The notes beneath the pieces were generated by a model, which made no database searches, had not been told where the DNA came from, and saw only the letters and a list, made by a program, of their open reading frames with translations. The position numbers were made by a program, and so were the translations under genes. Of a stretch of 64,000 bases of DNA, positions 1 through 16,968 are shown piece after piece. The stretch's first letter is position 1; the number at the start of each line of letters is the position of its first letter. Origin of the DNA: an uncultured Lachnospiraceae bacterium. Lineage in GTDB: Bacteria; Bacillota; Clostridia; Lachnospirales; Lachnospiraceae. Location: assembly GCA_946549035.1 (NCBI GenBank), contig CAMNQH010000007.1, positions 7,739 through 71,738 of the forward strand, in the 5' to 3' direction.

Positions 1-167
1 GCGCCACTCCTGTCCCAGTTCCTCCAATCCCTTTTGCCACCGTTCAAATACGTCTCCCCTGCCCCGAAGCCTCTGTTCCTTGGCCCGTAAAATAGACGGG
101 TGTTTTCCTTCCTTTCCCCATGACGCCAGGATGCAATCCTCTTCTAATACAATGACTGTCTGACTCA
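1..167 (-). CDS. hypothetical protein, N-terminal fragment (gene runs off the left edge)
   Basis: ATG at 165-167 (minus strand) preceded by GAAGGAGGAAAAA. Open to position 1 (MSQTVIVLEEDCILASWGKEGKHP...). Lies about 35 nt downstream of the pilC-like stop on the same strand. No family recognised. Confidence 0.35.
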
Positions 168-201
168 TTTTTTCCTCCTTCTCCCCATACTGCTAGAATT
201 C

Positions 202-1395
202 TTAAACAGAACCTTCAATCGTCCCGTAAGACTCATAGATGGGAAGCATTACTGCTACAATAATAAATCCTACCAAAAGCGCCATGACACAGATCATTAC
301 AGGCTCCATCAGCGTTACCAGCCGCTTGGTGGCTGCCTCCGCTTCTTCTTCCATAGCCGCTGCGATGGAATCCAGCATCCGATCCAGCCGTCCGCTTTCC
401 TCCCCCACTAAAATCGTGGAAGAAAGCTTCCGTAAAAATCCGTCCACCTCCAAAAGAGCCTGGGAAAGCGGAACGCCGCTGCGCACTTTAGAAGCCGCCT
501 TGGGAATCTGCTCCTTGATGTACTCGTTTCCAATGGTCTCCCCGGCTGTCTGCAAAGCAGAAACCACAGGCATTCCACTGGCATAAAGACTGCTTAAGGT
601 ACGGGAAAAACGCGCCGTATAGATAACCTGATTCAGCTTTCCCACCACCGGCATGTGCACCTTTCCGTAATCCAGTATTCGGCGCACCTTACGGACACGC
701 CCTATAATACGCAAAATAACCACCAGCAAAAACACGGCAAGTATGGCCAGATACCACTCATGGATCAAAAAATCGGAACAGGCCATTATAATTTCCGTAG
801 GCGCAGGCAACTGTTCCATTTCGGAAAAAAGCTCCTCAAACTGAGGCAGAATAAAGGTAACAATCAATATCACCACCGCCACGCTCATGCCCAGCAATAC
901 CATAGGATAAGCCATGGCGGATGTGACTTGCTGTTTCAGACGATTTTCCTTATTGTAATGAAGGGAAAGCCGCTCCATCACCATATCCATCGTTCCGCTT
1001 CCTTCCCCGGAGCGAACCATCCCTACCATCAGCTCCGGAAAGCATCCCTTTTCTTCCATTGATTCCGACAGGCTGACGCCTCGTTTCAAATCTGATAGCA
1101 GCTCCTGATATATATTCCGGACGGCCTTAGGCGTCCCCTCTTCCTCCGCCACAATTTCCAGGGCCCGCACAATACTGATTCCGGAGGCCAACAATGCAGA
1201 GAGCTGTTTACAGAATTCGGAAAGCTGTCTTGGTCCGATTTTTTTATGCTTTTTTGCTTCCTGCTCCTTGGCTTCTATCAAAAACAGGCCCTGCTCCTTT
1301 AACTGCTGCTGAAGATTTGGGAGCCCGGAAGCCTCCATAGCGCCCCGAAGGGTTTTCCCCTCCATATTTTTTGCAGAATAGCGGAAATTCGCCAT
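202..1395 (-). CDS. pilC: type IV pilus / type II secretion platform protein (GspF/PilC family)
   Basis: 397 aa with duplicated T2SS-F-type segments and hydrophobic spans (GISIVRALEIV..., SGMPVVSALQTAGE...). Start moved from the track's 1509 to ATG 1395 (MANFRYSAKN...), which has GGAAGGAGGAG upstream. Confidence 0.9.
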   Translation of the reverse strand: MANFRYSAKNMEGKTLRGAMEASGLPNLQQQLKEQGLFLIEAKEQEAKKHKKIGPRQLSEFCKQLSALLASGISIVRALEIVAEEEGTPKAVRNIYQELLSDLKRGVSLSESMEEKGCFPELMVGMVRSGEGSGTMDMVMERLSLHYNKENRLKQQVTSAMAYPMVLLGMSVAVVILIVTFILPQFEELFSEMEQLPAPTEIIMACSDFLIHEWYLAILAVFLLVVILRIIGRVRKVRRILDYGKVHMPVVGKLNQVIYTARFSRTLSSLYASGMPVVSALQTAGETIGNEYIKEQIPKAASKVRSGVPLSQALLEVDGFLRKLSSTILVGEESGRLDRMLDSIAAAMEEEAEAATKRLVTLMEPVMICVMALLVGFIIVAVMLPIYESYGTIEGSV

Positions 1396-2697: not shown

Positions 2698-2759
2698 CTT
2701 GTGTCTCTCCTTTTTCTTTAATTTTTTATATCTGAAGAGGTCTGTCAAAAGCCCCTCTA

Positions 2760-3503
2760 TCATTCCTTTTGGGCTGTGGGATCCGTCTTTTTTACTGCAT
2801 GATAACGCAGATCCAAGGTAACCTGATCCTTAACCCACAATTTTGTTTTTGCTTCATCCCGGTAAACCGCCACCTGGGCGTTCAAATATTCCACCTTGTC
2901 CCCAGGGGCAAGACCTGGGGGATACGAAAAGGTAATTTCCAGATAATTTCCCATATAGGCTCCCTCTGCAAACACCTTCTGCAGGGCGCGGGCCACGGCC
3001 CGGCCGTCTTTGTTCTCATAATAGTAACGTTCTCCCGTTCCCTGAGCATAATAACGAATCAGCAGCCGTCCCGGCTTTTGGTCTTCCGCTTTCATGGTGT
3101 CAATTTTCTGAGTTCCCAGATAAATATCCGTTTCAGGGCAGCCTTGCGTTGAAATTAATGTCACATATCCCTGAGTATCCAGAAACTCTAAGGCCAATCC
3201 CTCTTCCTCCCCTACTTTATCTCCCATTAAAGTATCCGGCTCACAGGTATCGTACAGCTTGACATAACCTGAGGCGTTCTCTGTAATGCCCCTTAGCTCT
3301 TGAATCACATTGTCCAAGATAACCTGAGCAAACTGCAGCCTCTGCATTCGGACAAAGAGCTTGGCTGCCGGGCTTAAAATTCCCACCACCGCCGCCATCA
3401 AAATGCTCATTAAAAACATCGACACGATAAGCTCCACCAATGTGGTGCCGGCTTTTCGTCTTTTTTTCTCCTCTTCTCTCCCCGGGCGTTCTCCTTTCCT
3501 CAA
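2760..3503 (-). CDS. prepilin-type minor pilin
   Basis: 247 aa. Long basic leader, then KAG|TTLVELIVSMFLMSILMAAVVGIL (Gly-1, Glu+5). 4-nt overlap with the upstream gene. Confidence 0.75.
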   Translation of the reverse strand: MRKGERPGREEEKKRRKAGTTLVELIVSMFLMSILMAAVVGILSPAAKLFVRMQRLQFAQVILDNVIQELRGITENASGYVKLYDTCEPDTLMGDKVGEEEGLALEFLDTQGYVTLISTQGCPETDIYLGTQKIDTMKAEDQKPGRLLIRYYAQGTGERYYYENKDGRAVARALQKVFAEGAYMGNYLEITFSYPPGLAPGDKVEYLNAQVAVYRDEAKTKLWVKDQVTLDLRYHAVKKTDPTAQKE

Positions 3504-3862
3504 GGGCCGCCACCTCCTCCAAACAGATAAAAGTCTGCTTTTCGGGCCGACCCGTCCTCCCCAGTATAGGGCACTTCTTTTTTCAACAGCTGCACGTCCA
3601 CCTGAAACAAGGTGGTAGTCCCGGTTTGAAGGCCGTCCGGGGACGCGGCCTGAAAGGAAAATGCTGCGGTCCCGTTAAAAATCTCCGGGGTGGCTTTCAG
3701 ATCCTGGCAGATTGCTGCGTTTCGTTCCCGGATCCTCTGGCTTTTCTGCTGGGCCTTGCTGCAAAAGGTAATGGCTCCCTGAAGCACGGCCGTCATCATT
3801 AGAAAAATAACGGCGGCAATCATCACCTCCACCAGGGATTCCCCGGCCTTTTGTTTCTTCAT
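3500..3862 (-). CDS. prepilin-type minor pilin
   Basis: 120 aa. MKKQKAG|ESLVEVMIAAVIFLMMTAVL has Gly-1, Glu+5 and a hydrophobic helix. Confidence 0.7.
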   Translation of the reverse strand: MKKQKAGESLVEVMIAAVIFLMMTAVLQGAITFCSKAQQKSQRIRERNAAICQDLKATPEIFNGTAAFSFQAASPDGLQTGTTTLFQVDVQLLKKEVPYTGEDGSARKADFYLFGGGGGP

Positions 3863-3876
3863 CCTTCATCCTCCTT

Positions 3877-4659
3877 TCATCCTCCCTCTGGGGAGGCTTC
3901 TGTTTCATATTGGCCCGCATCTTGAAAGCTGCAGCCTGTCATTTCGTCGGTTTGGTATTCATAATGAATCATCTCCCCGGGGGGAATGACATGAACCGCT
4001 CCTGAAAGGCTTAATTCGTGCCACTGGCTGTCTGCATCGTTCCAGATAATCCTTGTTCCATTGTGGGAAAAATCCACTTGATAGACGGCCATCTGCCGGT
4101 ATTCTTTCCGGTAACAGTAGGATTGATCTTGTACACTCACTGTCACTTCCATGGTAAAAAGATACCGCAGCAGCTTATTCTTTCGGATGGTTTCCGCCTG
4201 TTCCGGCAAAATCTCTCCGGCCAGTTCCGCATCCTCCTCCTGGGCTCCTTCCTTATACAGCGCCACCTTGACGTTTCCATAAGCTTCCTCCATCCCAGCC
4301 GGTTTGGCTGCCGTATAGTGAAATACCGTGGCCTCCGGATGGTCTGGGTCATACGTCCCGTACTGCCCCTCTAAAAATTTACAGGCATATTCATAAAAGG
4401 TATTGCCTCCGGGAGGCGGCATGGTATCGTATTTTTTTAATTCCTGGTCCAATACCTGGGCAAAGCTTTTTGCAAGCTGATAGCGTCGTTCCTGGTCAAG
4501 CCTTTGATTGGCCCCGGACAGTAACAGGTTCGCCACAGAAACCAGGGCCAGGGCAAAAGCCAGAAACAAAGCCGAAACGCAGATCACGATGGCCAGGGAG
4601 GAGCCTTCTTTTCCTTTTATTTTTTTCTTTTGGAGCAACATTTCTTTTTTCGAGTCCAT
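3877..4659 (-). CDS. pilus-operon protein with N-terminal hydrophobic anchor (ComGG/PilX-like position, no Glu+5)
   Basis: Start taken at ATG 4659 (MDSKKEMLLQKKKIKGKEGSSLAIVICVSALFLAFALALVSV...) with GGGAAGGAGGGA upstream. The track's longer form (4782) would overlap the end of the giant ORF. Function unknown. Confidence 0.55.
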   Translation of the reverse strand: MDSKKEMLLQKKKIKGKEGSSLAIVICVSALFLAFALALVSVANLLLSGANQRLDQERRYQLAKSFAQVLDQELKKYDTMPPPGGNTFYEYACKFLEGQYGTYDPDHPEATVFHYTAAKPAGMEEAYGNVKVALYKEGAQEEDAELAGEILPEQAETIRKNKLLRYLFTMEVTVSVQDQSYCYRKEYRQMAVYQVDFSHNGTRIIWNDADSQWHELSLSGAVHVIPPGEMIHYEYQTDEMTGCSFQDAGQYETEASPEGG

Positions 4660-4693
4660 GATCCCTCCTTCCCTTAAAATTGCAGATTTTCTA

Positions 4694-7600
4694 TTAATTT
4701 CCCAAGGACGCCTCTGTTTCTTTTGAGGGGCGGTACGCGTCGCTTGGCTGCCCCGGGAACAGATCTGGTGCATTTTGAGCAACGTCTGCCCGGACAGATA
4801 CGGAAGATGTCGCCGTAAGGTCTGTTTCTGTAATGGATACGCCGCCCTCCGTGGTCAAGGACTGGGCATCCGGCAGTAAAAGCGTATAAGTATATCCGCC
4901 TCCCTCCTTTTGACGTACTTCCAGACGAGCGTTCATCTGCACTTGATAATAATAAGTAATTCCTGCCTGAGTGTAGGTACGATCCAGACTAATCCCATAT
5001 TCCGGCAGCTCAAAGCTCCAAAGTCCTTCTTCTGTCTCTTGCTCCATCATACGGGCCTCCCATAGGGGCTCCTCTCCTGTCTGGCCGTTTTGGACATATA
5101 CGGCAACGGATCCATTCTCCTGCTGTTCTATCACACGGATGTTCAAAACAGCGCCGCTCTTTTGTTTTAAGGTTACATAGTAAGCGTCCGCCAGATTTCC
5201 ACTGTCCCAACAGAAAGCAATGCGTTCTGCCTGCCACTTTTGCATCTGAGGCAAATCCGGGTTTGTGGTGTCTGTTACTTCAAGCTCTCGCTGCTGGCTC
5301 ATCAAGCTTACTTCTGGTTTTTCAAGCTCTACATAAGGAAGCCGCCATATATCGGTATTTACCGTCCACTGGGAGCTCACCTGGCCTCCGCCGGAAGAAA
5401 TCCTGACGCTGCACAAGATCCATTTTCCCCCATAAGACGAGGACAAGCCCGTTAGGGTATGGCTGTACCTATTCCCTGGATGAACGTCCATCTGGACGGG
5501 AGAAAGCTCTCCTGTTTCATCCTGAGCCGGGTATGTAGTCAAAACACCCTGGGAGGGTTCCATTCCGGCCTCAATCTGCTGTTTTGCCATAAGGGCCTCT
5601 TCTTCCCGCTCAAACACATAGGCTTTCAGAAGATAACCGCTGTCTCCCGGAGGAATACTGCCCTTATCGGGTATCACCCCAATGTTCAGACTGTTCCCGT
5701 CGGGGTCTTCTGCGTTTTCAAATCCCTGTACCGATAACGGCAAATCAGGATCGTATTCCCAGCTTTTTTCCCATGTCACTTGAGGCGTGGGAATCCGCTC
5801 TGGTACGGTAAGTTCATAAGTAATACCCTCTAAGCTGTCCACATACCGGAGGCTTCCCGGCTCTGCCTGGGCAATTAAATACAGAAGGATCCGCTGTCCC
5901 TGATACCCGCTTAAATCCAGCTTCTTTTCATATCTGTCCCCTTCCTGTTCCTGGACGCTTGCTTCTTCTAGCTTTACAGGCAGCCCAAGGCTTCCGTCTG
6001 CTTCATAGGGTCGTAAATAAATTCCATAGGAGCCGCAGCCCGTTTCCGGCCGAATGGGACTCCATGCAATGGAGTATACCAATTCATTGACGTTTGGATT
6101 CTCTACGGAAGGCTGAGCCGGACGAGGCAGCCGCTGTCCCACCAGATAAGTCCTGGTATCAGACAGCCCTACACGGCCGGATTTGACATCCCCGATACTG
6201 GTTACAGTCAACTCTACCTTTTCATAGGTCCATTGCTGGGCGTCCGAGGTAAAGCTGTTCCCGGAAACTTCCTGATTCGTTACTAAGGATACCCGGCTGC
6301 TGCCGTTGACGCCCACTAAAGACACCAAATAACGGTCGCCATTTTGATATTCTCCTGGCTTTTCATCCCACCGAAAGGTGTATGTCAGATGATTGTTTTC
6401 ATCAAATTCCGGCGTTAATCCTCCTTCGGCCTCCATAAGGCTGGGTTTTTTCCATTGGAACAGATCTCCCAGGCTCCAGCTGCAATCCTGCTTCAAAGCG
6501 TTGCTCTCCAATACGCTGCTGTAAGCATACTCCCAGCGGGGTTTTACTTCTCCTCCTTCCTCCTCCATATAAAGCATACGAATATTGGCGTCTTCTTCTG
6601 TTGCGGCGCAGTAAGTATACACCGGCCCCAAACCAGACTGGGCATACCAGATTCGGACTTTCCAATCCTTCATATTCCTCGCATAGTCCGGCAGATTTCC
6701 AAAATCCGCCGTAGCGGCTCCGTTAGCGGCCGCCAGAATATCTCTGCTTAAAAGTACTGTATCCGGATACTCCCTTCCGTCTTCTCCCGTCCAGGTTCCC
6801 ATTAGCTCTACACGATATACCGGGGGCGTAGTGACTGTCCCGGAGCCTGCAGCATCCAAGGTTACCGTAATTTTTAAATCAGACAAATTTGTTCCAGAAA
6901 GGGTTACCTTCGGCTTCGCTTTTCCTCTGCCATAGTTGGCCTCATCCAGGGTAATAGAAGGTTTGTCTTTTGGAAGATAGACAGGCACAGGCACCTGGGC
7001 CGATGGAAGCAGCGTCTGGTCTTTGGGAACCGCCTGTACCAAAAGCTGCTGCAGGGAATCCCGGGCGGGAATCAGTGTGCCAAAATATCCCTCCTGATCC
7101 GGAACTCCTGTAAGCTTTGGCGTACCGTCCATAAATTTCACAGAAATCTCCCACTCCTTATCCTGGGGATACTCCTCTTGATTCAACAGCCGGAAGCGGT
7201 AGCCCCTTCCATCCCTGTTCAATTCAATACAAATTTCGGGACTTGGCAGCAGCACCTCTCCTGCCAGTTCGTCTGATGATACCGGCTCTGAAGACTCCAC
7301 CTCCTGGAACATACTGTGGGCCCTTACTACCACAAAGGGTTCTCCCTCTTTCACCGCATCCTTTGGAAGCGTAAAACTGTATTCCTCTGTATAAAAAGTA
7401 ATCCCGGACGTAATAAGCTCCGTCTCCTCTCCTTTTTTCACATATAAATCCGCCGTATACCGGAAGGGGTCCGTGCCGTCTGCAGGCGTCACAGCCACGG
7501 TGGCCTGACTCCCTGCTCTTAAAAAGGATACCTCCATAGGCGCCTGCATCTTTACTCCCTTAGGCACTTCATCCTGAAGCAAAATGTTCGTATCTTCTAC

Positions 7601-10600
7601 TTTGTAATAGGCATTGCGCACATGGTCGTCAAAATTGCTGCCTTTTTGAAGAACATCCAAAAGCCTCTGATAGGAAGCGTCCGGTTCCTGGGTTTTGTCA
7701 ATAGGGAACAATATTTCTCCTATTTCATTGCCGTTTCCATAAATCCTGTCATTGACAAGGGTAAGCTGCTGTCTGGTTACGCTGCTGTCCGGGGTGATTC
7801 GCGCCACATAAGATTTTTCATCAATGTCCACCCGATAGATACAGCTTGTATCCGCTCTGGTCAGATTGTCCGGAGCTGCTTTTACCGTGTATCCGTTCTG
7901 TTCTAATATCTTAAAGCTGTCATAGCCGGAATTTCCTCCGCCGATATCACATAGGAAATAATTGTCCTTGGCGTTCAAATACGGAACGTTCCCATTGTTG
8001 GTGGTATAAGAAATAATAGGATAATTCCGGTTCTCATACGTTCCTGCCGAAATGGGGTTGACAGAATAGCAGTCTTTGATATAAGTATGTTCCGCTCCCA
8101 CCTTGGAGTATCGTTCTCCAAAAATTCCCCCTACGAACTTATTTCCTCCGCCGCCCTTTAATACTTTCGCATAGTTTCGGCACCGTTCCATACGCAAGGT
8201 AATATTTTGGGTAGCAGCTCCGATTTGAGCTTGGCTTCTGGGATTGTCACAGGACAAAAATCCTACAATACCGGAAGCCATAGATGCAGAATAAATCTCC
8301 ACCCCCGACCCGTTTACGCAGTCCAATACCTGAACGGTATAATTCTGTCCCTGGCCTTCGCCTGCCTCATAAGCCGTAATATTTCCCAAAATACCCGCAC
8401 TGTCGTTGGCGCACCCCGTATTACTTGCTCCGGTACGTCCGTAGATATTTCCATAATTTCCGCAGCTTATAATGTTATATTCGCCGCCCTCGTAGGCATG
8501 GTAGAGCTGGGCCACAATTCCTCCGGAAGCGCCTACCCATCCTGCCTCATATGTAGTCTGAAGATTCCCGAAATTGTTACATTCCTCAATGGTGCCTCCC
8601 GTCCCGGTCCATTGGCCCAAAATACCTCCGGAATAATGGGTTCTCAAGCAATAAACCGTCCCGTAATTGAAGCAGCCCTTCAGCTTCCACCCTTCTTTTG
8701 TGGTATTGTTCTGATTTCCGATAATTCCTCCGGCAAAGCGGTTGGTATCCTGAGAAGAAATCTGCCGTCCTACAAAAGCCCGGTTCAATAAAAAGGATTG
8801 ATCAGACTCCGACTCGTTCATGCCGATAATTCCCCCGGTTCCCACGCCGATAGCATCAGAACCGTTATTGAGATACCAGTTGCCTGTGGCGCAGTAATTC
8901 ACTCTCCCTTCCGGGGCGTTATAAGCTGTAATCCCGCCCAGGCTGCCGTTTACATGCATGGTTAAAATCAAGCTTTTTCCCGCTAATATTCCATCCCCAT
9001 TTTCGTAGGACAGCTGCTCTATGGATACCCCTGCCTGAGAGTTCCATCTTACATAAGAATCATCCGATGAAATCCCCAGAGCCTGGGCATTGGAAAGAAG
9101 CGTGTCTGCTCTGTCTGAGGGCTGCCCGGTAAGATTTGCCATCAGCTCTTTCGTGCTTGCGTCCCCGGATCTGGAAATGGTTCCCTTGTTATATCCCACA
9201 ACTCCTCCTGCCATTCCATTATTTATTTCCATCCGGCAATCCGAACCGGAAATCAGGCATCCTTCTATCCTTCCGGTTTCCTCATTTTTTCCAGCCACGC
9301 CGCCTATATGGGTCGCCAGTTTCTCTTTTTGAGCGGAGGTGCTGGTACTGGTTGCGGTATATACGCCTTTTATTTCCATGGTAAGATTCAAAACCTCACA
9401 GTCCGTCAGGCTTCCGTAATTATCTCCCGCAATGCCGCCGTAACAATTCCCTGCAATCCCCCTTTCTTCCATCAGGCTTCCTTCTTCTAAGCTGCATTCT
9501 GCAATCGTTCCTTCTTCCTGGTTTATTCCCGCAATTCCCCCCAAGAAGCGATAGTTGTCAAATCCTAAAAAATCCAATCCTACAGCGGAAATACGTTGTA
9601 TCTGTCCCCTGTTTTTACCTGCTGCTCCTCCCACGGTCAAGTTCCCGGCGGAAACATTAATTTTGGGCATACAGACAGCAGAAAGATTGCTTATAATTCC
9701 CAGATTCTCTCCGGTGATTCCTCCTATGGTGTCTCCGTCTCCGGATAAGACTACGTCTGTAAGGGTCCTGCTCTGTTCAATCAGGCCATGGTTGACTGCG
9801 CATATTCCGCCCAACTGTGTCTTTTTCAGACTGCGGATTTCCATGGATGCCGCGCCGCCCCCTACACTGCAGTCTTTGACTGTACCATAATTTTCTGCGG
9901 TAATTCCTCCGGCATAGCCGTTATCGCTGTTCACATTTCCCAAGCCCTGGCACTCTTCCAGCAGGATTCCCGTCTGATTTACTGCTACAATTCCTCCGGC
10001 AGGTCCCTGGTTCGCCGTCACACGGCCGCTTCGATTGATTGCCCGGCTTACCGCGCCGAAATTTTCTCCGGCAATGCCTCCGGCATACCCTTCCTTCGCC
10101 TGGATCAGAGCCGCTTTGCACACCAGATATCCCCTCTGGGCATTTAAACTTCCTTCCTGGATTCCTGCAATCCCGCCGACCTTTTCCCTGCCTGTAACGG
10201 TGACGGCTTCTCCCACTGCCACTATCTCTTTTCCTGTTGTTCCCTGGGCGGTCACAAGGATATCCCCCTGGTTTCTTCCTGCAATGCCGCCAATCCCCAT
10301 CCCATTCATTCCCTGGATGGTACGGGCCCCTGTCCCAGCGTCTTCTCCAACGACTATGGTTCCCTTATTGACTCCGGCGATTCCCCCGGCATAATCTCCT
10401 TCCGCCGTAACACTGGCTTCACTCCGGTTCTCAGAAAGGAAGCCTCCCGTCATATTGTATCCTACGATCCCTCCTACGTAACTGGATCCGGTTATGGTTC
10501 TTTGCCCCTGTGTGCTGCATTCTGCAATGGTTCCGGAATGATACACCCATTCCCGGCCGCCTTCTTTTGGCTCCCGGTACACAAGGTTTGTTCCATCTTC

Positions 10601-13600
10601 TTTCAAATTCAGTCCGGCAATCCCGCCGATATAATCCAAGGCGCCGTTTCCAAAATGATCCTCCAGTCTGCAGCCAAAAATTCCTCCGGCATTAAATCCC
10701 ACAATCCCTCCAAGACCTACAAATCCATTCATGCTCCCGGTATTTGCGCAGTGATCGATCACCTGATTTTTTAAATTTGCACTGATGACGCCTCCTGCCA
10801 TACACACATAAAGGCCCTCAAGCTCCTCCTCTTCCTCCTGCGTCAACGGAGAATTTCCCCCTCTGTCCAGATATTGCTTCAAAGACACCCCTTGGGATTC
10901 TCCCTCTTCCGAAAGCTTGGAAATATTTCCGTCGTTTCTGCAGTTTCGCAGTACCAGCCTGCTTTCTTCCTCACAATAACCTACGATGCCCCCGGTGTAA
11001 ATATGGGAACGGATGGGAATGTTGTTTCCCGCATACTGCAGCGCTTCCTCTGTATTCCTGTGATCTGTAATGGTAAGAACACAGGTATTTTGGGAGGAAA
11101 CGGCTCCTACAGGAATATTTCCTTCTCCCAATTTTGGAAGCAGAGATGTCTTCTCTGGTTCTTCCCCCTTCGCCGACGACAACAGCCGCTCCAGTAAAAC
11201 CACTTCCTGTACTTCCTGATCTTCTTGTAGCTGTTCTTTTGTAAAAGTTCTGTGATAGCCTATCAAACCTCCGGTAAAGGCTTCTCCCATAATACTGCCC
11301 AAACCATTATTTGCCCGAAGTCCTCCTATTGTCACATCGTTTTGCAAATCTACTACATTTGCCCCGATGACGCCGCCTACGCAAGAGGCGCCCCGGACAC
11401 TGGAGGGCTTAATCTCCAATTCCTTCGTCAGGATATCCTGGGAAGTATTAACGCCTATACAGCCTCCCGCTCCCATTCCGTACGCATAAATCCGGCCGCC
11501 AATCAACGTATATTCCACATCCAGGGAACCTTTTTCATCGTTAAAGCCAACGACGCCTCCTACAAAGTTTTGCCCTACCACCACAGTTGACACAGATTTT
11601 ACGGTAATGGCCTCACTTGCCTCCTGAAAGATGATTTTCCCATTGTTGTAGCCGGCCAGCCCGCCGGCGCAATCTGCCGTGGCTTTCCATTGGGATACGA
11701 TCATTTGAAAAATTATACCGCCGTAATCAGAAAGGTAACTGGCGCAATCCTGAAGTACACCTTTTTCTCCGTTATAGCCTACAATGCCTCCTACATAGCG
11801 TTCATATCCTGCCACTACGCCATTGTTAATACAGTTGGAGATGGTAATCTCATCCGCCGCGCCGTCGTTCTTTCCCAGGATGCCCCCCACATAGCTGTTG
11901 CCGATCACATAGCAGGCGTTGGTAGTCACTCCGATTCCTTCTGCTGCGGTAATGGCATGTTTCACATCGTTGGACAATCCTCCTGCAATGCCGCCCACAT
12001 AATCGGATCCCAGAATATAGCCTCCCATTTTGGTACTGCAGCCGGTAAGCTGGCTGCTGCTGCCATAGCCAATGATTCCTCCCACATACTGGCCTGTCAA
12101 AAGATGTTGATCCGCCTGGGTATAACCCGTGTTACTATAACGGCCCGGGGCGCTGATACAATCCTGAATCTGAAGGTTTTGGCCAAATCCAAGAATCCCT
12201 CCGAAGTATCTCCCCTCCAACAGGCCCTCTTCTTTTTTATGCCCTACGCTGCAGCGGATCTTCCCGTCGTTTTCACAATCCTGTATTCCCGGCTGTAAGG
12301 TATCCTCTTCCTGGCTTGCCTGGTAACCGCCCTGCATATAGCCGCCGATTCCTCCGGTAAAAAGATTGCCTTTCATATTGGCATGATTGATGCATCCTAT
12401 CACTGTGATCTCGTCTTGTACCCAGGCATATCCAAAGATTCCTCCTATGCCGTATTGATACTGCAGCGCCCGGCTTTCTGTATCCTCCGCCTGCTCCTGT
12501 TTCGGCTCTGGCAGCCTTCCGGTCACTTCCCCTTCCATGGTAAGATTTTGGATGACGGCATCGCTGCTCTCCGTCAGGGGCGTCAGCTTTCCTTCTGAAT
12601 CTTCCTCAGCCAAAATTCCTATCATTCCTCCGATGGCGGCCGGATCTTCCTCTTGTAACCCGGACGCATGATCCCTCTTTGGAAACCATACTTGAAGGGT
12701 TTTTTCTCCCTTTATCGTCACCTGTATGGAAATATCCGATAATTTCCCCTGGCTTCTGCCGCACAGGATTCCCACGCCATACAAATGGAAGAATTTTTCC
12801 GCCGCTTTGGCATTCTCCCCCTCCTCTCCCAAGGCGAGAACCGGATCCTGGAGCACCAGGTTTTGAATCTCTCCTTCCACTTCTCCAAACAGCCCCAGAT
12901 AGCGGGAATAAGGCTTATCTACGCTTTCCTGGTACATGCTGTCAATAAATGCATCCTCCGGCAGGGAACCCTCCCCCAGGCGCAAACGGCGGATCCTGGT
13001 TTTTTCTCCCTTGCCCTGGAGCACATGATTTTCAGAAAGCAAAGGTATCGTCGGAAAATGTACTGCCGGATCCTCCGTACTTTGCCAGGAAAGCGCCCGC
13101 TTCTCATGCTCTCCTTGAGACAGCGCCGCGTCATACAGTCCCGTCCCGGAAGCCATCCAGTCCAGGTTCCGGCCGTTTAAAGTAAATACGGCTTTCTTTT
13201 GCTCTTCATAACAGCGTATGTTGGAAAGATGCCGAAACCGGGTGATTTCTGCCTCAAGCGTCCCTTCCTCATCCAGACTTCCGGCCTGATACAAGGTATT
13301 CGCCTCATTGGAACGCATGGGGCTTCCAGGACGGTATTCCCGAAAATCCCCCGTGCTGTGTTCATACACCGGCTTTGTCTGGATAACTGCATAGATATCG
13401 CAAGGCAAAGATAATTGAGGAAGGAAGGCTCCCAAACGGGTAATGCTGGTGCTGTACTCTTTGGCCAGCGCTTCTCCCTGACCGGCTTGTTCTGCTGCAT
13501 AAAGCCGTTCCATCAATTCCGGGGACATCATAGCGTCTAACACCAGAGAAAATTTACCGTTCTGCCCCTCCCTGGCCTGGTAGGTCAAGGGAAAATACCA

Positions 13601-14464
13601 CACCGCAGCATCTCCGCCTATTGCATTGCCCTCCCGGTCTTTCAGCTTCAGCCCGGCAACCTGGTTCTCGTTGGCTCCCGCCGCTTTTAAGTCATACCAG
13701 TTCACCCAAGTAGAAAACAGCTCTTCTTGAGACCCACTTTCATAAAATGTAATCTCATATTCCACATCCAGATTATCGTGCCTGGAATTGCCGGACCAGT
13801 TCAGGGACAAGGTTTCCCCATTTACAAGACTGATGGTGGTGACTTTTAACCTGGCAGGCTTTAAATCCACCACATTGGCCAGATCCTCTGTAGAATAATA
13901 GCCCAAAAGACGTTGCCTGCGGCTCCCATAGATCCGGTTCTCTCCTTTTGCGCTGATGCTTTGTATCCCCTCCTGGCTTGTATCACCGTATGAGAGGGAC
14001 TTGCATCTGGTTGCATAAAAGGCTGAATATACCTGGCCTGTCTCAATATCAATTTCCACTGCGATGGCAGCGTCCAAAAAATCCTTATCATAAATACTGT
14101 CTGACAAAAGTTTGCGTACCAGTTCCTGAGAAGGGGAATTTTCTCCGGCGCTTTTGCTGTTTAGGGTAATTGCATAGATACGGCCGTTTTTTTCCGATTC
14201 TTCCTCCTCAAAGGTATCGTTGCACATTCCGTCCCTTACCACTTCCCTGCAGAAATCTTCCCATTGTCCGCTGCTGCGATACCACGTCAAAGCAGATTCT
14301 GCAGCCAAATAAACCGTCTTGGCATTGGATTCATTTTTTCGGAACTCCGCCAGCTTCTGATATTTGATTCCCATAGGAATCGCGATTGCCGCCAGCACCA
14401 CAAGAATCACCAATGTCACGCAAACCTCGGTAAGTGTAAATCCTTTTTTTGCCATTTTATTCAT
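4694..14464 (-). CDS. giant prepilin-type N-terminal cleavage/methylation domain protein with GLUG-type repeats and C-terminal beta-sandwich-like modules
   Basis: Uninterrupted reading frame of 3,256 aa from ATG 14464 (MNKMAKKG|FTLTEVCVTLVILVVLAAIAIPMG; alternative ATG at 14455). The central part is full of xVGGIxGxNxG units. The C-terminal third is made of modules separated by proline-rich joints (RLPRPAQPSV, ERIPTPQVTW, LPKDKPSITL). No LPXTG at the C-terminus. Confidence 0.85.
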   Translation of the reverse strand: MNKMAKKGFTLTEVCVTLVILVVLAAIAIPMGIKYQKLAEFRKNESNAKTVYLAAESALTWYRSSGQWEDFCREVVRDGMCNDTFEEEESEKNGRIYAITLNSKSAGENSPSQELVRKLLSDSIYDKDFLDAAIAVEIDIETGQVYSAFYATRCKSLSYGDTSQEGIQSISAKGENRIYGSRRQRLLGYYSTEDLANVVDLKPARLKVTTISLVNGETLSLNWSGNSRHDNLDVEYEITFYESGSQEELFSTWVNWYDLKAAGANENQVAGLKLKDREGNAIGGDAAVWYFPLTYQAREGQNGKFSLVLDAMMSPELMERLYAAEQAGQGEALAKEYSTSITRLGAFLPQLSLPCDIYAVIQTKPVYEHSTGDFREYRPGSPMRSNEANTLYQAGSLDEEGTLEAEITRFRHLSNIRCYEEQKKAVFTLNGRNLDWMASGTGLYDAALSQGEHEKRALSWQSTEDPAVHFPTIPLLSENHVLQGKGEKTRIRRLRLGEGSLPEDAFIDSMYQESVDKPYSRYLGLFGEVEGEIQNLVLQDPVLALGEEGENAKAAEKFFHLYGVGILCGRSQGKLSDISIQVTIKGEKTLQVWFPKRDHASGLQEEDPAAIGGMIGILAEEDSEGKLTPLTESSDAVIQNLTMEGEVTGRLPEPKQEQAEDTESRALQYQYGIGGIFGYAWVQDEITVIGCINHANMKGNLFTGGIGGYMQGGYQASQEEDTLQPGIQDCENDGKIRCSVGHKKEEGLLEGRYFGGILGFGQNLQIQDCISAPGRYSNTGYTQADQHLLTGQYVGGIIGYGSSSQLTGCSTKMGGYILGSDYVGGIAGGLSNDVKHAITAAEGIGVTTNACYVIGNSYVGGILGKNDGAADEITISNCINNGVVAGYERYVGGIVGYNGEKGVLQDCASYLSDYGGIIFQMIVSQWKATADCAGGLAGYNNGKIIFQEASEAITVKSVSTVVVGQNFVGGVVGFNDEKGSLDVEYTLIGGRIYAYGMGAGGCIGVNTSQDILTKELEIKPSSVRGASCVGGVIGANVVDLQNDVTIGGLRANNGLGSIMGEAFTGGLIGYHRTFTKEQLQEDQEVQEVVLLERLLSSAKGEEPEKTSLLPKLGEGNIPVGAVSSQNTCVLTITDHRNTEEALQYAGNNIPIRSHIYTGGIVGYCEEESRLVLRNCRNDGNISKLSEEGESQGVSLKQYLDRGGNSPLTQEEEEELEGLYVCMAGGVISANLKNQVIDHCANTGSMNGFVGLGGIVGFNAGGIFGCRLEDHFGNGALDYIGGIAGLNLKEDGTNLVYREPKEGGREWVYHSGTIAECSTQGQRTITGSSYVGGIVGYNMTGGFLSENRSEASVTAEGDYAGGIAGVNKGTIVVGEDAGTGARTIQGMNGMGIGGIAGRNQGDILVTAQGTTGKEIVAVGEAVTVTGREKVGGIAGIQEGSLNAQRGYLVCKAALIQAKEGYAGGIAGENFGAVSRAINRSGRVTANQGPAGGIVAVNQTGILLEECQGLGNVNSDNGYAGGITAENYGTVKDCSVGGGAASMEIRSLKKTQLGGICAVNHGLIEQSRTLTDVVLSGDGDTIGGITGENLGIISNLSAVCMPKINVSAGNLTVGGAAGKNRGQIQRISAVGLDFLGFDNYRFLGGIAGINQEEGTIAECSLEEGSLMEERGIAGNCYGGIAGDNYGSLTDCEVLNLTMEIKGVYTATSTSTSAQKEKLATHIGGVAGKNEETGRIEGCLISGSDCRMEINNGMAGGVVGYNKGTISRSGDASTKELMANLTGQPSDRADTLLSNAQALGISSDDSYVRWNSQAGVSIEQLSYENGDGILAGKSLILTMHVNGSLGGITAYNAPEGRVNYCATGNWYLNNGSDAIGVGTGGIIGMNESESDQSFLLNRAFVGRQISSQDTNRFAGGIIGNQNNTTKEGWKLKGCFNYGTVYCLRTHYSGGILGQWTGTGGTIEECNNFGNLQTTYEAGWVGASGGIVAQLYHAYEGGEYNIISCGNYGNIYGRTGASNTGCANDSAGILGNITAYEAGEGQGQNYTVQVLDCVNGSGVEIYSASMASGIVGFLSCDNPRSQAQIGAATQNITLRMERCRNYAKVLKGGGGNKFVGGIFGERYSKVGAEHTYIKDCYSVNPISAGTYENRNYPIISYTTNNGNVPYLNAKDNYFLCDIGGGNSGYDSFKILEQNGYTVKAAPDNLTRADTSCIYRVDIDEKSYVARITPDSSVTRQQLTLVNDRIYGNGNEIGEILFPIDKTQEPDASYQRLLDVLQKGSNFDDHVRNAYYKVEDTNILLQDEVPKGVKMQAPMEVSFLRAGSQATVAVTPADGTDPFRYTADLYVKKGEETELITSGITFYTEEYSFTLPKDAVKEGEPFVVVRAHSMFQEVESSEPVSSDELAGEVLLPSPEICIELNRDGRGYRFRLLNQEEYPQDKEWEISVKFMDGTPKLTGVPDQEGYFGTLIPARDSLQQLLVQAVPKDQTLLPSAQVPVPVYLPKDKPSITLDEANYGRGKAKPKVTLSGTNLSDLKITVTLDAAGSGTVTTPPVYRVELMGTWTGEDGREYPDTVLLSRDILAAANGAATADFGNLPDYARNMKDWKVRIWYAQSGLGPVYTYCAATEEDANIRMLYMEEEGGEVKPRWEYAYSSVLESNALKQDCSWSLGDLFQWKKPSLMEAEGGLTPEFDENNHLTYTFRWDEKPGEYQNGDRYLVSLVGVNGSSRVSLVTNQEVSGNSFTSDAQQWTYEKVELTVTSIGDVKSGRVGLSDTRTYLVGQRLPRPAQPSVENPNVNELVYSIAWSPIRPETGCGSYGIYLRPYEADGSLGLPVKLEEASVQEQEGDRYEKKLDLSGYQGQRILLYLIAQAEPGSLRYVDSLEGITYELTVPERIPTPQVTWEKSWEYDPDLPLSVQGFENAEDPDGNSLNIGVIPDKGSIPPGDSGYLLKAYVFEREEEALMAKQQIEAGMEPSQGVLTTYPAQDETGELSPVQMDVHPGNRYSHTLTGLSSSYGGKWILCSVRISSGGGQVSSQWTVNTDIWRLPYVELEKPEVSLMSQQRELEVTDTTNPDLPQMQKWQAERIAFCWDSGNLADAYYVTLKQKSGAVLNIRVIEQQENGSVAVYVQNGQTGEEPLWEARMMEQETEEGLWSFELPEYGISLDRTYTQAGITYYYQVQMNARLEVRQKEGGGYTYTLLLPDAQSLTTEGGVSITETDLTATSSVSVRADVAQNAPDLFPGQPSDAYRPSKETEASLGN
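8100..12640 (-). repeat. coding repeat region: about 35-40 degenerate GLUG-type units
   Basis: By-eye count of GG[ILV]xG cores spaced about 25-40 aa apart, running from GGMIGILAEE (near 12620) to VGGIFGERYS (near 8130). Examples: VGGIAGGLSN, VGGIVGYNGE, AGGIAGENFG, IGGITGENLG. The repeats are conserved at protein level only; the DNA units are divergent. Confidence 0.7.
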
Positions 14465-15773
14465 GCTTTTCGTAATACTCCCTCTTATCTTTATACATTC
14501 TGTCGTCTGCTTTTGCAATCAGCCGGTCCAAATCCGTCCTGCCGTCGGGGCTCCACACGCAGCCCACAGCCATCCTGGCCTCTTGCTCTTCTCCTTTACG
14601 TTTTACTGCTTCCATCCGCCGCAGCAGCTCTTCATGTTCAATTCCCGGACAAAGGACAAGAAATTCGTCTCCCCCAATGCGAAACAGGGCGTACTCTTTC
14701 AGTTCTTCCTTCAAGCAGCGGCAAGCCCGCAGCAGAAGGCGGTCCCCGGCCTGATGTCCCTGGGTGTCATTGATTTTTTTTAATCCCATTACATCGCAGT
14801 ACAAAACTCCAACGCTCTCTTCCTTTCCAAGGGAAGCAATATATTCGTGCATGGCGTGACGGTTTCCAACCTCCGTCAGCTGATCGTAGTAGCTCATCTG
14901 TTCCAGGCTTCGAACCAGATTTCTTCTCCGCAGCAGGGAAACAATAAAATGGCCCACAATCTGAAACACGGAAGAAATATGATCCATATATCTTCCGGGA
15001 GGATTATCAATCCCATAAAATCCAATGATCCTTTTTTTATCAACCAAAGGGCTCACTACCAGAGACTGAATTCCTTGAGGGTATAAATAGCTATAAAGTC
15101 CAAGATCCTTCTGTCCCACGTCTTCCACATCATGAACCAGAACGTTTTCCCCGTTTTTAAATCTCTGATACCACAGCTTCGGCACTTCCTGAGAAATATT
15201 TTGCAAATTCTCTATTTGCCGGCTAACGCCATTTGCACACCATTCATATGTATTGGACAGCTTTCCTTCTCTTGTCTCTTCAAAAATATAAACCCGCTCT
15301 CCCCGAAGGAATTGCCCCAGGCACTCCACCAGCCTGAGAATCGACTTTTCCGGCTTATCTGCCTGGAGGGAAATCCGCAGCACTTCATTTACCATAGCGT
15401 TGGCGCTGTTCATTTCCATCTGGGGTTCCTTCTGCCATCCTACATCTCCCTGGTCTATGGCCAGTTCAAACCGGTAACGCCTGCCATTTTCTTCGATGAC
15501 AGTACATTTCCGTTCCAATAATTTTCCCAAAACAGGATGGCACTGCCTCCACTCCAGAAACTGACCGGGGCGCAGGGAAGCATTCTCACACGCGGCGCAG
15601 GGAAGGGCACAGCCCTGAAGCGTCTGATAGCATTTTTTTCCCATGTATGCTGTTCCCTCCAAACCGTAAGCTTCCCGCCCCCGGGCATTCACATATACCA
15701 GCCCATAATTGTCCAAATCCACCACATAGACAATCTCATTCATATTTTCATAAAGTTCCCATATCTTGCTCAT
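14457..15773 (-). CDS. PAS/GAF-containing diguanylate cyclase (GGDEF domain)
   Basis: C-terminal YYDQLTEVGNRHAM...DVMGLKKINDTQGHQAGD...FRIGGDEFLVLC is a complete GGDEF domain with an intact GGDEF motif. Start uncertain: ATG 15773 (MSKIWELYENMNEIVYVVDL...) is preferred over the track's 15845. The stop TAA at 14457-14459 overlaps the giant ORF's start. Confidence 0.85.
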   Translation of the reverse strand: MSKIWELYENMNEIVYVVDLDNYGLVYVNARGREAYGLEGTAYMGKKCYQTLQGCALPCAACENASLRPGQFLEWRQCHPVLGKLLERKCTVIEENGRRYRFELAIDQGDVGWQKEPQMEMNSANAMVNEVLRISLQADKPEKSILRLVECLGQFLRGERVYIFEETREGKLSNTYEWCANGVSRQIENLQNISQEVPKLWYQRFKNGENVLVHDVEDVGQKDLGLYSYLYPQGIQSLVVSPLVDKKRIIGFYGIDNPPGRYMDHISSVFQIVGHFIVSLLRRRNLVRSLEQMSYYDQLTEVGNRHAMHEYIASLGKEESVGVLYCDVMGLKKINDTQGHQAGDRLLLRACRCLKEELKEYALFRIGGDEFLVLCPGIEHEELLRRMEAVKRKGEEQEARMAVGCVWSPDGRTDLDRLIAKADDRMYKDKREYYEKHE

Positions 15774-16069
15774 GTTTTTCTTTTGTGCCGCCTCCTTACG
15801 GCCTAGGAAAGATGGCCTCGATTTCATGAAATTTTTTTGTATCATACCATGTCCACCCCTGAACGAAGCAAGATATTTTTTTGTATTTTGACATTAATTT
15901 TCGCCCTTGTATAGTGATTCTGCAAAACTGTAAAGGTATTGCGTATATTTGGTTAGAGGAATTTTTAAAAGCTTTGAAATACGTCATATACGTACCCTGT
16001 TTTTTGATATATGAATCAAAGGGTAGTATCTAATGAGGGTAATCCTCCTTAAATATAAAACGGTTTTTT

Positions 16070-16077
16070 TGTATAAT
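16070..16077 (+). promoter_or_regulatory. extended -10 element (TGTATAAT) upstream of the kinase gene
   Basis: TGTATAAT lies 37 nt upstream of ATG 16114. No clear -35 element. Confidence 0.3.
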
Positions 16078-16113
16078 GAAACTAATAAATGAAACACGAT
16101 TGGAGATTACATT

Positions 16114-16950: not shown

Positions 16951-16968
16951 GTTCTCCCGTCTATAAAA

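Follow-up and report, generated by a model that had tools for sequence, protein, structure and literature searches.

Most work on type IV pili has concerned pathogens, and pilus subunits are generally regarded as small proteins. Modular pilins, which Raynaud et al. (2021) defined as a pilin module, a linker and non-pilus modules, have been proposed to sit at the pilus tip, where the apex subunit lacks Glu5 (PMC8179133, PMC10628169). The most extreme multi-domain case in the modular-pilin survey was an 860-aa protein, and the supplementary table of that survey counted an N_methyl plus GLUG architecture in 6 proteins (PMC8179133). Here, we compare these systems with a 3,256-aa protein (the giant) encoded in a 64,000-nt window of an uncultured Lachnospiraceae bacterium.

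Streptococcus sanguinis PilB (vWA module) and PilC (lectin module) are modular minor pilins, which is also how we read the giant (PMC8179133, PMC9934059, PMC10628169). They share with it a monoderm host, a class III signal with Glu5, a pilus operon, a short flexible linker to the non-pilus module and a proposed place at the tip below a Glu5-less apex pilin. S. sanguinis PilB has 454 aa when processed and one grafted domain (PMC8179133), whereas the giant family has 3,256–4,100 aa and the passenger of the giant would comprise approximately 36 units of a beta-helix plus nine to ten domains of the beta-sandwich type. The sequences are unrelated beyond the N-terminal motif.

ComZ of Thermus thermophilus (PMC6561018) and the cyanobacterial PilX/HpsA-type minor pilins (bioRxiv 10.64898/2026.02.12.705559) also combine a pilin fold with a bulky beta-solenoid, and both have been proposed to sit at the tip and serve as receptor, adhesin or "plug". 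In these proteins the solenoid is inserted between the last two pilin strands, whereas in the giant the passenger follows a complete pilin module and a linker. The giant matched no NCBIfam hormogonium-polysaccharide (Hps) model and keeps Glu5, unlike K/PilX-type apex pilins.

The PilY1/PilC tip adhesins and PilH-I-J-K (PMC13533445) represent the same combination that we propose for the giant and its neighbors, namely a large adhesin co-encoded with assembly-priming minor pilins. However, PilY1/PilC is a non-pilin beta-propeller protein that docks by a C-terminal beta-strand onto a K-type pilin, whereas the giant has its own pilin module, and Pfam found no PilY1/PilC domain in it (whole protein, E ≤ 0.01; overlapping segments, E ≤ 10). 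CpaL of the Caulobacter crescentus Tad pilus, which was shown to be necessary to start assembly (PMC13533445), and CofB of the enterotoxigenic Escherichia coli type IVb pilus, which was predicted at the tip as a trimer (PMC8179133), resemble the giant in having a pilin-like N-terminal domain and extra beta-rich domains. Both belong to different pilus classes and are far smaller (the dispensable middle of CpaL has approximately 470 residues, and CofB has two extra structural domains).

Results

The giant gene and its homologues

A minus-strand frame without stop codons extends from 14518 down to 4694–4696, a run of 3,274 codons whose chance expectation, computed from base composition, is approximately 1e-87. 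Read from ATG 14464, it encodes 3,256 aa with a computed mass of 351.1 kDa; thus, both the single uninterrupted frame and the mass of approximately 350 kDa given in the initial annotation were confirmed. The alternative ATG 14455 gives 3,253 aa beginning with MAKKG/FTL (here and below, a slash marks the predicted cleavage site). It is the called start in an independent contig with 99% identity (L002) and the start in an 83% homologue. The gene and the parts of its product are as follows.

4694..14464, minus strand: giant pilin gene, 3,256 aa, 351 kDa, stop codon at 4694–4696, homologues with 41–99% identity
14441..14464, minus strand: leader peptide MNKMAKKG, aa 1–8, predicted PilD cleavage after Gly8 (TIGR02532, conservation)
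13880..14440, minus strand: predicted pilin module, aa 9–195, with Phe1, Glu5, Pro22, a 55-residue alpha-1 helix and an alpha/beta head (AlphaFold2)
13205..13879, minus strand: low-confidence linker (aa 196–202), beta-sandwich and helical sub-domain up to approximately aa 420 (AlphaFold2)
8075..13204, minus strand: probable parallel beta-helix stalk, approximately aa 421–2130 (GLUG-type units, conservation profile)
8090–12640, minus strand: 36 recognizable GLUG-type units, aa 609–2125 (self-built repeat HMM)
4697..8074, minus strand: predicted C-terminal string of approximately nine to ten beta-sandwich domains, aa 2131–3256 (AlphaFold2, Foldseek)

Full-length homologues of 3,200–4,100 aa were found in approximately 70 species, nearly all of them Lachnospiraceae and some represented by complete genomes. 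The hosts include Roseburia hominis, Coprococcus comes, Eubacterium ramulus and Dorea. These homologues form more than 120 clusters, and the protein is conserved along its whole length. The ORF is intact in the complete R. hominis chromosome and in a 5.4-Mb contig of Sporofaciens musculi. The giant is a real and conserved protein, and the objection that an assembly error might underlie it is removed by intact full-length homologues in 70 species-level genomes.

Literature searches on large and giant pilins, on pilins with GLUG repeats and on the pili of Lachnospiraceae gave no description of the giant family, nor any published account of a GLUG pilin. The earlier statement that its size lies far beyond that of known pilins agrees with the literature searched. 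The family is undescribed rather than unseen: databases hold hundreds of its members under generic names. The R. hominis giant, for example, is named "type II secretion system protein" by NCBI.

Prepilin leader and pilin module

The N-terminus reads MNKMAKKG followed by FTLTEVCVTLVILVVLAAIAIP: a short hydrophilic leader with Gly as its last residue precedes Phe+1, Glu+5 and a hydrophobic stretch. The claim that this is a prepilin leader held against profile models. The giant scored 22.7 bits against NCBIfam TIGR02532 (cut-off 16.3); against Pfam N_methyl, it scored 18.5 bits as a whole protein and 22.6 bits on aa 1–220 (gathering score 21.2). A profile of 39 family members matched numerous solved pilin structures in their N-terminal helix (best E = 3.9e-9), and in most of these matches position 9 of the profile corresponded to residue 1 of the deposited chain, which we take as the start of the mature pilin. 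When the whole protein was searched against the PDB (phmmer and profile searches), this helix was the sole match. The layout KKG/FTLxE was found in nearly all of 38 homologues inspected, and Glu5 and Pro22 were conserved at 90% or more. The N-terminus is thus a class III signal, with cleavage predicted between Gly8 and Phe1.

The first 600 residues or so behind the helix had been called unplaceable; they resolved into a pilin head (up to approximately aa 195), a linker, beta-sandwich and helical domains, and short strands. The AlphaFold2 model of the N-terminal region (pLDDT 85.4) has a helix at 11–65, short helices and four to five strands up to approximately aa 191. The pilin module has pLDDT values mostly of 75–93 and 53–61% identity, which places it among the best-conserved parts of the giant. 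The linker (aa 196–202) falls below pLDDT 50 and is followed by strands at 208–311 and helices at 315–352. We read the short strands near the end of this region as the possible first rungs of a beta-helix. Aa 9–195 is thus predicted to adopt a pilin fold followed by a flexible linker, and with its non-pilus modules the giant has all the parts by which Raynaud et al. (2021) defined a modular pilin. A Foldseek search of the multi-domain N-terminal model against the PDB gave only weak Ig-like matches, none with E ≤ 1e-3; this model was uninformative on the pilin head.

GLUG-type stalk

The giant and the GLUG-motif proteins (PF07581/IPR011493) have the same short repeat, G-G-[IV]-x-G. The match of the giant to the Pfam Glug model was marginal and confined to one segment (aa 620–1100, 21.4 bits vs. 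20.5); aa 1080–1600 scored below threshold (14.0 bits), and the whole protein gave no Glug match at E ≤ 0.01. A repeat HMM built from the giant, and hence fitted to that protein, recognized 36 units in aa 609–2125, compared with 0–4 in 20 shuffled sequences. The motifs were spaced mostly 28–45 aa apart, with a few longer gaps. The extent of these units agrees with the approximately 1,500 aa of GLUG-type repeats annotated at the outset, and aa ~421–2130 probably form a parallel beta-helix stalk. The most conserved block of the giant, with an identity (60–75%) above that of the pilin helix, is aa 1801–2100. This block sits in the stalk and not at the distal end, which could mean a functional site other than distal adhesion.

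C-terminal domains and anchoring

The AlphaFold2 model of aa 2100–3256 (pLDDT 85.7) is almost all beta, and Foldseek matched it to strings of Ig/FN3/macroglobulin-type domains (E = 1e-17 to 1e-10). From the predicted strands, we count nine to ten putative beta-sandwich domains. These had been annotated as repeated modules. The beta-sandwich character stood, and so did the repetition at the level of fold; repetition in sequence did not, as BLASTP comparison of the C-terminal 1,157 aa with itself detected no internal repeats. The last domain, whose strands are long, ends in a motif conserved in the tail alignment, S-x-A-Y-x-x-S...E-hydrophobic-x-hydrophobic. The distal C-terminal parts were the least conserved (26–36%) and bear the main hotspot of large insertions, after aa 3071, as expected for a ligand-facing end. 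Pfam named no extra domains in family variants of 3.7 and 4.0 kaa.

We also considered whether the conserved extreme C-terminus might be a dangling "C-beta" strand going back to the tip complex, as in PilY1 and CpaL (PMC13533445). This is disfavored because the tail was modeled with good confidence within the C-terminal fragment, a point in which the giant also differs from the beta-solenoid pilins. CpaL folds its own C-terminal strand back on its pilin domain.

No wall anchor other than the pilin helix was found, in agreement with the initial annotation. The giant has no LPXTG-like motif (LP.[TSA][GAN]) anywhere and no hydrophobic 20-mer outside aa 9–34, hence no second membrane segment; the full-length homologues inspected likewise end in polar tails. 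Giant rod-like adhesins of Gram-positive and Gram-negative bacteria, for example LPXTG-anchored or type I-secreted repeat proteins, resemble the proposed form of the giant in being acidic rods of tandem beta domains of several hundred kDa, with the binding end kept at a distance from the cell. Their anchor is either sortase attachment or retention in the secretion pore, whereas the giant has neither signal and would use its pilin helix. With that helix and its place in a pilus operon, the giant would be mobile, unlike those adhesins.

The pilus operon

The genes adjoining the giant gene in the window are listed below.

14457..15845, minus strand: sensor diguanylate cyclase with PAS-like, GAF and intact GGDEF domains, overlapping ATG 14464 of the giant by 8 nt
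3877..4659, minus strand: 260-aa pilin-like protein, G/SSLAIVIC..., no Glu5, directly following the giant gene; candidate apex ("K-type") subunit
3500..3862, minus strand: 120-aa minor pilin, KAG/ESLVEV, Glu5, N_methyl 21.6 bits, conserved across loci
2760..3503, minus strand: minor pilin of approximately 230–247 aa, KAG/TTLVEL, Glu5, N_methyl 26.4 bits
2257..2763, minus strand: probable major pilin, KKG/FTLVEL, N_methyl 35.9 bits, TIGR02532 32.3 bits
1421..2203, minus strand: PilD, prepilin peptidase plus N-methyltransferase domain, A24_N_bact 103.9 bits, Peptidase_A24 54.2 bits, GGGDMK motif
202..1395, minus strand: platform protein PilC/GspF, T2SSF 189.3 bits, two domains, start from the L002 gene call
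1..168, minus strand: next operon gene, weakly GspL-like, cut by the window edge (480 aa in L002)

The three small neighboring pilins claimed earlier were recovered as N_methyl proteins (3862–3500, 3503–2760 and 2763–2257), and the shared operon with an A24 peptidase and a GspF/PilC platform was corroborated by the domain matches; the inventory had overlooked a fourth pilin-like gene (4659–3877). Glu5 is kept in the giant, the 120-aa and 247-aa proteins and the major pilin, and is absent from the 260-aa protein. The true start of the major pilin is likely the internal Met of MKNWKRNGKKG. In L002, the 480-aa gene is followed by a 211-aa weakly GspM-like gene and by a PilB gene cut by the contig end.

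PDB profile searches and Pfam scans of the 260-, 247- and 120-aa families gave nothing beyond N_methyl, and the 260-aa family had no Pfam or PDB relative in these searches. All 26 family members of the ~230–247-aa minor pilin matched N_methyl, and this pilin showed weak similarity to GspI, below cut-off. When the three families were compared with GspH/I/J/K, FimU/PilV/W/X and ComGD–G, the matches were all sub-threshold (for example, GspI with 19.8–27.4 bits vs. a cut-off of 44.35) and driven by the N-terminal motif; no relationship was detected beyond that motif. The roles of H, I, J and K are therefore not assignable by homology, and the assignment to a tip complex is based on the order of the genes, the sizes of their products and the presence or absence of Glu5.

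Synteny was examined in 59 species loci extending as far as PilD and PilC. In homologous loci, the gene of the giant is followed by those of the Glu5-less pilin-like protein, two minor pilins with Glu5, the major pilin, PilD and PilC; next come weakly GspL/M-like proteins, a PilB that has a c-di-GMP-binding domain and, usually, PilT. In nearly every species, a complete pilus operon begins with the giant gene. The gene of the 260-aa protein always follows it, and every complete locus has one or two copies of the major pilin gene. All four small pilin-like genes were present in 55 of the 59 loci, and the giant and the 260-, 120- and 247-aa proteins, four non-major pilins of which only the 260-aa protein has no Glu5, likewise stood together in 55. 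PilB on the same strand and an adjacent same-strand PilT were each found in 55/59 loci. The diguanylate cyclase gene lay upstream of the giant gene in only 3 of the 59 loci (this lineage and a few others).

PilB was closest to type IVa PilB; in R. hominis, its c-di-GMP motif scored 59.5 bits (vs. 38) and PilT scored 412 bits. Tandem RxGxxLLxxG...Q motifs were visible in PilB of L002 and of L003, the closest relative. PilT was absent from the window and did not adjoin the operon in L003. Rfam detected no c-di-GMP riboswitch and no other RNA family in the whole window. Promoter-like sites in positions 1–17000 were at chance level (22 vs. 19.5 expected), and terminator-like sites numbered 29 (18.3 expected, sd 4.3), none at an operon boundary.

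Discussion

We consider it probable, on the combined evidence, that the giant belongs, as a modular minor pilin, to a type IV pilus system conserved in Lachnospiraceae, and that it is cleaved by PilD and incorporated into the complex that initiates the tip. The following assembly steps are all drawn from established pilin biology. The class III signal would insert the giant into the membrane, and the co-encoded PilD would cut the leader after Gly8 and methylate Phe1. The hydrophobic alpha-1 helix would then hold the mature protein in the membrane until, with the three small non-major pilins, it forms the complex that starts pilus assembly. Since the giant has Glu5 and its 260-aa neighbor has none, the neighbor rather than the giant is likely the apex subunit, and the giant would sit beneath it. 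Polymerization of the major pilin below by PilB would drive the complex out through the wall. The initial annotation had suggested a terminating subunit as one option; this was the wrong picture, because pili grow from the base and the tip subunit is the initiator.

The approximately 3,050 residues past the linker would form a thin rod, the GLUG beta-helix followed by the nine to ten beta-sandwich domains, with an estimated length of approximately 50–65 nm. Such a rod would be thinner than the pilus and could pass the same opening. It would present the variable distal domains as an adhesin. Given its place at the head of a complete pilus operon in approximately 70 species, the giant is probably an adhesive fiber carried at the pilus tip. 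The cleavage, pilus incorporation and adhesive role of the giant are all inferred. The overlap of the cyclase gene with the start of the giant gene suggests translational coupling; this overlap and the MshEN domain of PilB indicate that pilus deployment is probably controlled by c-di-GMP. PilT beside the operon in most species indicates that the pilus is probably retractile.

Alternatively, the class III signal might provide a cleavable anchor and nothing more, with the giant remaining unpolymerized in the cytoplasmic membrane as a wall-spanning fibril, and the pilus genes co-regulated but mechanically independent or sharing only PilD. The hydrophobic N-terminal helix is the sole anchor, a 50–65-nm rod would presumably span the Gram-positive wall by itself, and a 350-kDa passenger far exceeds anything shown to be polymerized (PMC8179133). 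We nevertheless regard such a fibril as unlikely: in nearly every species its gene stands first in a complete pilus operon, the conserved Glu5 and Pro22 (90% or more) are tied to the packing of filament subunits, and the gene is always accompanied by three further genes for non-major pilin-like proteins, as many as an initiation complex should have (PMC10628169).

Instead of, or besides, an adhesin, the pilus might carry an enzyme, such as a polysaccharide depolymerase or a protease, with a catalytic or substrate-binding site in the beta-helix groove, especially at aa 1801–2100. Many parallel beta-helix proteins are glycan-degrading enzymes, and this highly conserved block, judged by eye from the family consensus, seems to have many conserved His, Cys, Asp, Asn, Gln and Trp residues. 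The modular-pilin survey lists peptidase-type modules as well as the N_methyl-GLUG architecture (PMC8179133). However, Pfam and NCBIfam (segments up to E = 10) and the PDB profile search found no enzyme family in the giant, the GLUG motif is one of unknown function and not a catalytic domain, and the conservation could equally stem from the core packing and capping of the helix. An enzymatic role thus seems quite unlikely.

It is very improbable that the giant is the substrate of a secretion-type pseudopilus, pushed by a piston as in type II secretion and then shed or cleaved off. The name of the R. hominis protein and the GspL- and GspM-like proteins after PilC (26.5 and 32.7 bits, both below cut-off) point in that direction, whereas the adjacent PilT and the type IVa-like PilB point to a dynamic, extended pilus. 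Moreover, a monoderm lacks an outer membrane that would need to be crossed, and the giant shows no obvious processing site after its pilin module. Finally, although the gene is broken into two ORFs in a few metagenome-assembled genomes (L004, L020, L024 and L054), a mis-assembled, fused or decaying gene is ruled out for practical purposes by the intact homologues, the complete genome, the 5.4-Mb contig and the 99%-identical contig.

Returning to the giant as a tip-complex pilin, this family would stretch the idea of the modular pilin by approximately an order of magnitude. It raises the questions of how a pilus machine exports, folds and threads a 350-kDa passenger through peptidoglycan, whether the tip retracts and what the giant binds. 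To our knowledge, the adhesion mechanisms of the abundant gut Lachnospiraceae are largely unknown; the giant family and its operon are a testable candidate for a colonization organelle in these bacteria of health interest, and the link to c-di-GMP (MshEN in PilB and, here, the overlapping cyclase gene) offers a regulatory handle. A bolder proposal, which we hold as possible and tentative, is that gut Lachnospiraceae share a dedicated pilus lineage that works as a retractable winch triggered by c-di-GMP, with an invariant first subunit of 350–440 kDa, the largest pilin known. If true, this organelle would be a main means by which they attach to mucus, to dietary particles or to other cells. Type IV machinery would then be able to begin assembly on a subunit of twenty times the usual size and to pull it through a thick wall, and common human commensals would bear a pilus-tip fiber tens of nanometers long.

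Reading frame and N-terminal pilin signal

The giant's minus-strand frame stays open from position 14518 down to its stop codon (4694-4696). Starting at the ATG at 14464, it encodes 3,256 aa (351 kDa, pI 4.7). A second ATG at 14455 gives MAKKG|FTL; this start was called in L002, a public contig 99% identical to the window, and was also seen in an 83% homologue. From base composition, the chance of a random open frame of this length is approximately 1e-87.

The initial annotation described one long uninterrupted frame with a pilin-like start, and both features were borne out. NCBIfam TIGR02532 scored 22.7 bits (cut-off, 16.3). Pfam N_methyl passed when the first 220 aa were scored (22.6 vs. 21.2) and fell short when all 3,256 aa were scored (18.5 vs. 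21.2). N_methyl was carried by most homologues. A profile of 39 family members aligned to many solved type IV pilins and pseudopilins through their N-terminal helix (best E = 3.9e-9). In most of these matches, the deposited chain, taken to be the mature pilin, began at profile position 9, the predicted G8|F9 cleavage site. Gly-1, Phe+1, Glu+5, and Pro+22 were invariant or ≥90% conserved in the family. As judged from sequence, the N terminus is a class III (prepilin) signal.

Distribution of the family

When 5.8 billion proteins were searched, full-length homologues (3,200-4,008 aa, 41-99% identity, 90-100% coverage) made up >120 clusters. With aa 1-640 as the query, an exhaustive HMMER search clustered at 50% gave 381 representatives (E ≤ 1e-10), and most of those that were complete measured 2,000-4,045 aa. 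The scan of one genome per species yielded 70 loci, nearly all from Lachnospiraceae, with hosts including Dorea, Roseburia, Coprococcus comes, Eubacterium ramulus, Sporofaciens musculi, Laedolimicola, Hominisplanchenecus, Frisingicoccus, Acetatifactor, and others. Five loci (L038, L050, L055, L058, and L066) came from bins labelled Tidjanibacter, Bacteroidaceae, Prevotella, Alistipes, or Parabacteroides and carried a Lachnospiraceae-type operon; these are most likely contaminated metagenome bins rather than cases of transfer. NCBI names the proteins [quoted passage not shown] or "type II secretion system protein" (e.g., WP_159756039.1, XCP86775.1).

Organization of the pilus operon

The small pilins of the initial annotation were recovered, together with a Glu5-less protein that it had overlooked (first line of the list). 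The A24 prepilin peptidase and platform protein that it placed in the operon lie on the same strand and were identified as PilD and PilC, respectively.

Genes 3′ of the giant, in order
First, minus strand: 260-aa protein, G|SSLAIVIC, without Glu5
Second, minus strand: 120-aa pilin, G|ESLVE
Third, minus strand: ~240-aa pilin, G|TTLVE
Fourth, minus strand: canonical pilin, KKG|FTLVE, probably the major subunit
Fifth, minus strand: PilD, with peptidase and A24_N_bact domains and a GGGDMK motif
Sixth, minus strand: PilC

The window edge falls 168 nt into the gene after PilC. Beyond PilC, L002 has genes for proteins of 480 and 211 aa and then a PilB gene truncated by the contig end. In the complete genome of Roseburia hominis, the giant is followed in turn by genes for proteins of 258, 125, and 241 aa, the major pilin, a 153-aa protein, PilD, PilC, a weakly GspL-like protein (478 aa), a weakly GspM-like protein (236 aa), PilB, and PilT. 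The R. hominis PilB has a c-di-GMP-binding motif of the MshE type (59.5 bits vs. 38), and PilT scored 412.7 bits (vs. 319). Among the 59 loci of the per-species scan that reached far enough, all four small pilin-like genes were present in 55, PilB on the same strand in 55, and PilT on the same strand in 55.

A conserved gene for a protein of ~153 aa lies between the major pilin and PilD in most other loci (22337-22798 in the example locus L001) and is absent from the window's own lineage (the window, L002, and L003). Features of the protein are a single hydrophobic segment and a conserved AAIPG.L.IMRRADAQVALGNAKS stretch; it showed neither a G|F..E cleavage motif nor a family match.

Immediately 5′ of the giant, the minus-strand gene at 14457-15845 encodes a PAS-like/GAF/GGDEF protein whose GGDEF motif is intact. 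The gene ends in a TAA stop that overlaps the giant's ATG at 14464 by 8 nt, an arrangement found in only 3 of 59 related loci. Many other loci have PilT at the position occupied by this diguanylate cyclase in the window's lineage (L002 and L003), in which no PilT adjoins the operon. The MshEN domain on PilB and the cyclase gene overlapping the start of the giant suggest that the pilus is under c-di-GMP control, and the presence of PilT in most species suggests that it is retractile.

Predicted architecture and conservation

The initial annotation left ~600 aa behind the pilin helix unplaced. AlphaFold2, run on aa 1-640 with the family alignment (mean pLDDT 85.4), resolved this region into the following segments.

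Predicted segments of aa 1-640
aa 11-65: 55-residue helix, packed on a small alpha/beta head that ends near aa 191
aa 196-202: linker, low confidence
After the linker: beta-sandwich and helical sub-domain
From ~aa 420: short regular strands

The GLUG-type repeats expected next were present as 36 GG[IV]xG-centred units at aa 609-2125 (0-4 units in 20 shuffled controls), mostly spaced 28-45 aa apart with a few longer gaps; Pfam Glug itself passed only marginally, in one segment. The model of aa 2100-3256 was nearly all beta (pLDDT 85.7), and Foldseek matched it to chains of Ig/FN3/macroglobulin-type domains (E = 1e-17 to 1e-10). A reading of the strands suggests roughly nine to ten domains. The beta-sandwich-like modules were upheld as repeats of fold only; no repetition was found among them at the sequence level. 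A search of the giant for an LPXTG-type motif or a second hydrophobic segment found neither, in agreement with the view that the pilin helix is the only visible anchor. A beta-helix rung rises ~4.8 Å and a sandwich domain spans 3.5-4 nm; with these general dimensions, the passenger is estimated to form a rod of ~50-65 nm.

Identity to homologues along the giant
Pilin module: 53-61%
aa 801-1000, stalk: 64-67%
aa 1801-2100, stalk: 60-75%
aa 2101-2400: 26-36%
aa 3101-3256: 30-34%

The most conserved block among 38 homologues, above even the pilin helix, was aa 1801-2100 (window ~8165-9064, minus strand), in whose family consensus many positions occupied by His, Cys, Asp, Asn, Gln, and Trp appear conserved. 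A single site after aa 3071 accepts large insertions, to which the 3.9-4.1 kaa variants owe their length. The final ~17 residues (window 4697-4750, minus strand) carry the motif S-x-A-Y-x-x-S-x3-E-hydrophobic-x-hydrophobic-(N), kept by the homologues of ~60 species (L001-L072) although the domain before it varies. This motif may simply be the closing strand of the terminal domain; alternatively, it may act as an interaction signal.

Proposed mechanism and alternatives

Sequence features, fold predictions, and conserved gene order were obtained directly; the function of the giant we infer from what is established about pilins in general and from the model for Streptococcus sanguinis (PMC8179133, PMC10628169). 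The giant would be inserted into the membrane, where PilD would cleave and methylate it. With the three small non-major pilins, it would make up the assembly-initiating complex, in which the Glu5-less 260-aa protein would occupy the apex with the giant beneath, because the giant retains Glu5, which pairs with the subunit above. Polymerization of the major pilin by PilB would then push the complex outward, and the thin rod would pass through the wall ahead of the pilus, exposing the variable distal domains. The modular-pilin interpretation of the initial annotation is supported at the sequence level.

A membrane-anchored fibril that is not polymerized is unlikely, given the strict operon linkage and the conservation of Glu5 and Pro22. 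Slightly less probable again is an enzymatic stalk: the conserved block at aa 1801-2100 speaks for it, but a search for an enzyme family detected none. That the giant is a shed secretion substrate seems quite improbable. An artefactual frame can be dismissed almost completely. The giant was intact in almost all loci of the per-species scan; it was split in four metagenome bins.

Other features of the window

A pair of topoisomerase genes, one GyrB/ParE-like and the other GyrA/ParC-like (16969-21269, minus strand), lies upstream of the pilus region and fits a chromosomal context rather than a mobile one. The stretch at 30001-32000 is low in GC (0.355 vs. ~0.46 around it), and two overlapping ORFs lie within or at it.

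ORFs within 29697-31635
Plus strand: 404-aa ORF, weak AAA_22 match
Plus strand: 243-aa ORF, DpnII/MboI-type restriction endonuclease fold (PF18742, E = 1e-33)

No obvious methylase was found beside these ORFs, which may form a small acquired defence island. At 40120-42582 (minus strand), an 820-aa frame combines a cupin domain, an AraC-type HTH (aa 198-276), and a GH39 glycoside hydrolase domain (aa 329-783). This frame either represents a fusion of regulator and enzyme or had its start called too far 5′.

Comparison with known pilins

A survey of modular pilins listed >1,200 proteins in 264 architectures and six N_methyl-GLUG proteins in its supplementary table; the most extreme multi-domain case that it highlighted was 860 aa long (PMC8179133). 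Nearest in design are the beta-solenoid pilins ComZ (PMC6561018) and cyanobacterial PilX/HpsA (bioRxiv 10.64898/2026.02.12.705559), in which, unlike in the giant, the solenoid interrupts the pilin fold. Functional analogues are PilY1/PilC and CpaL, which dock via a C-terminal strand (PMC13533445). Open-access papers and bioRxiv yielded no paper on the giant family or on any pilin of comparable size. The modular-pilin principle itself is already established, and the giant appears to be an extreme, lineage-wide form of the modular minor pilin. The size and constancy of the family would surprise a pilus specialist, and in major gut commensals the family is a concrete candidate for an organelle of adhesion.
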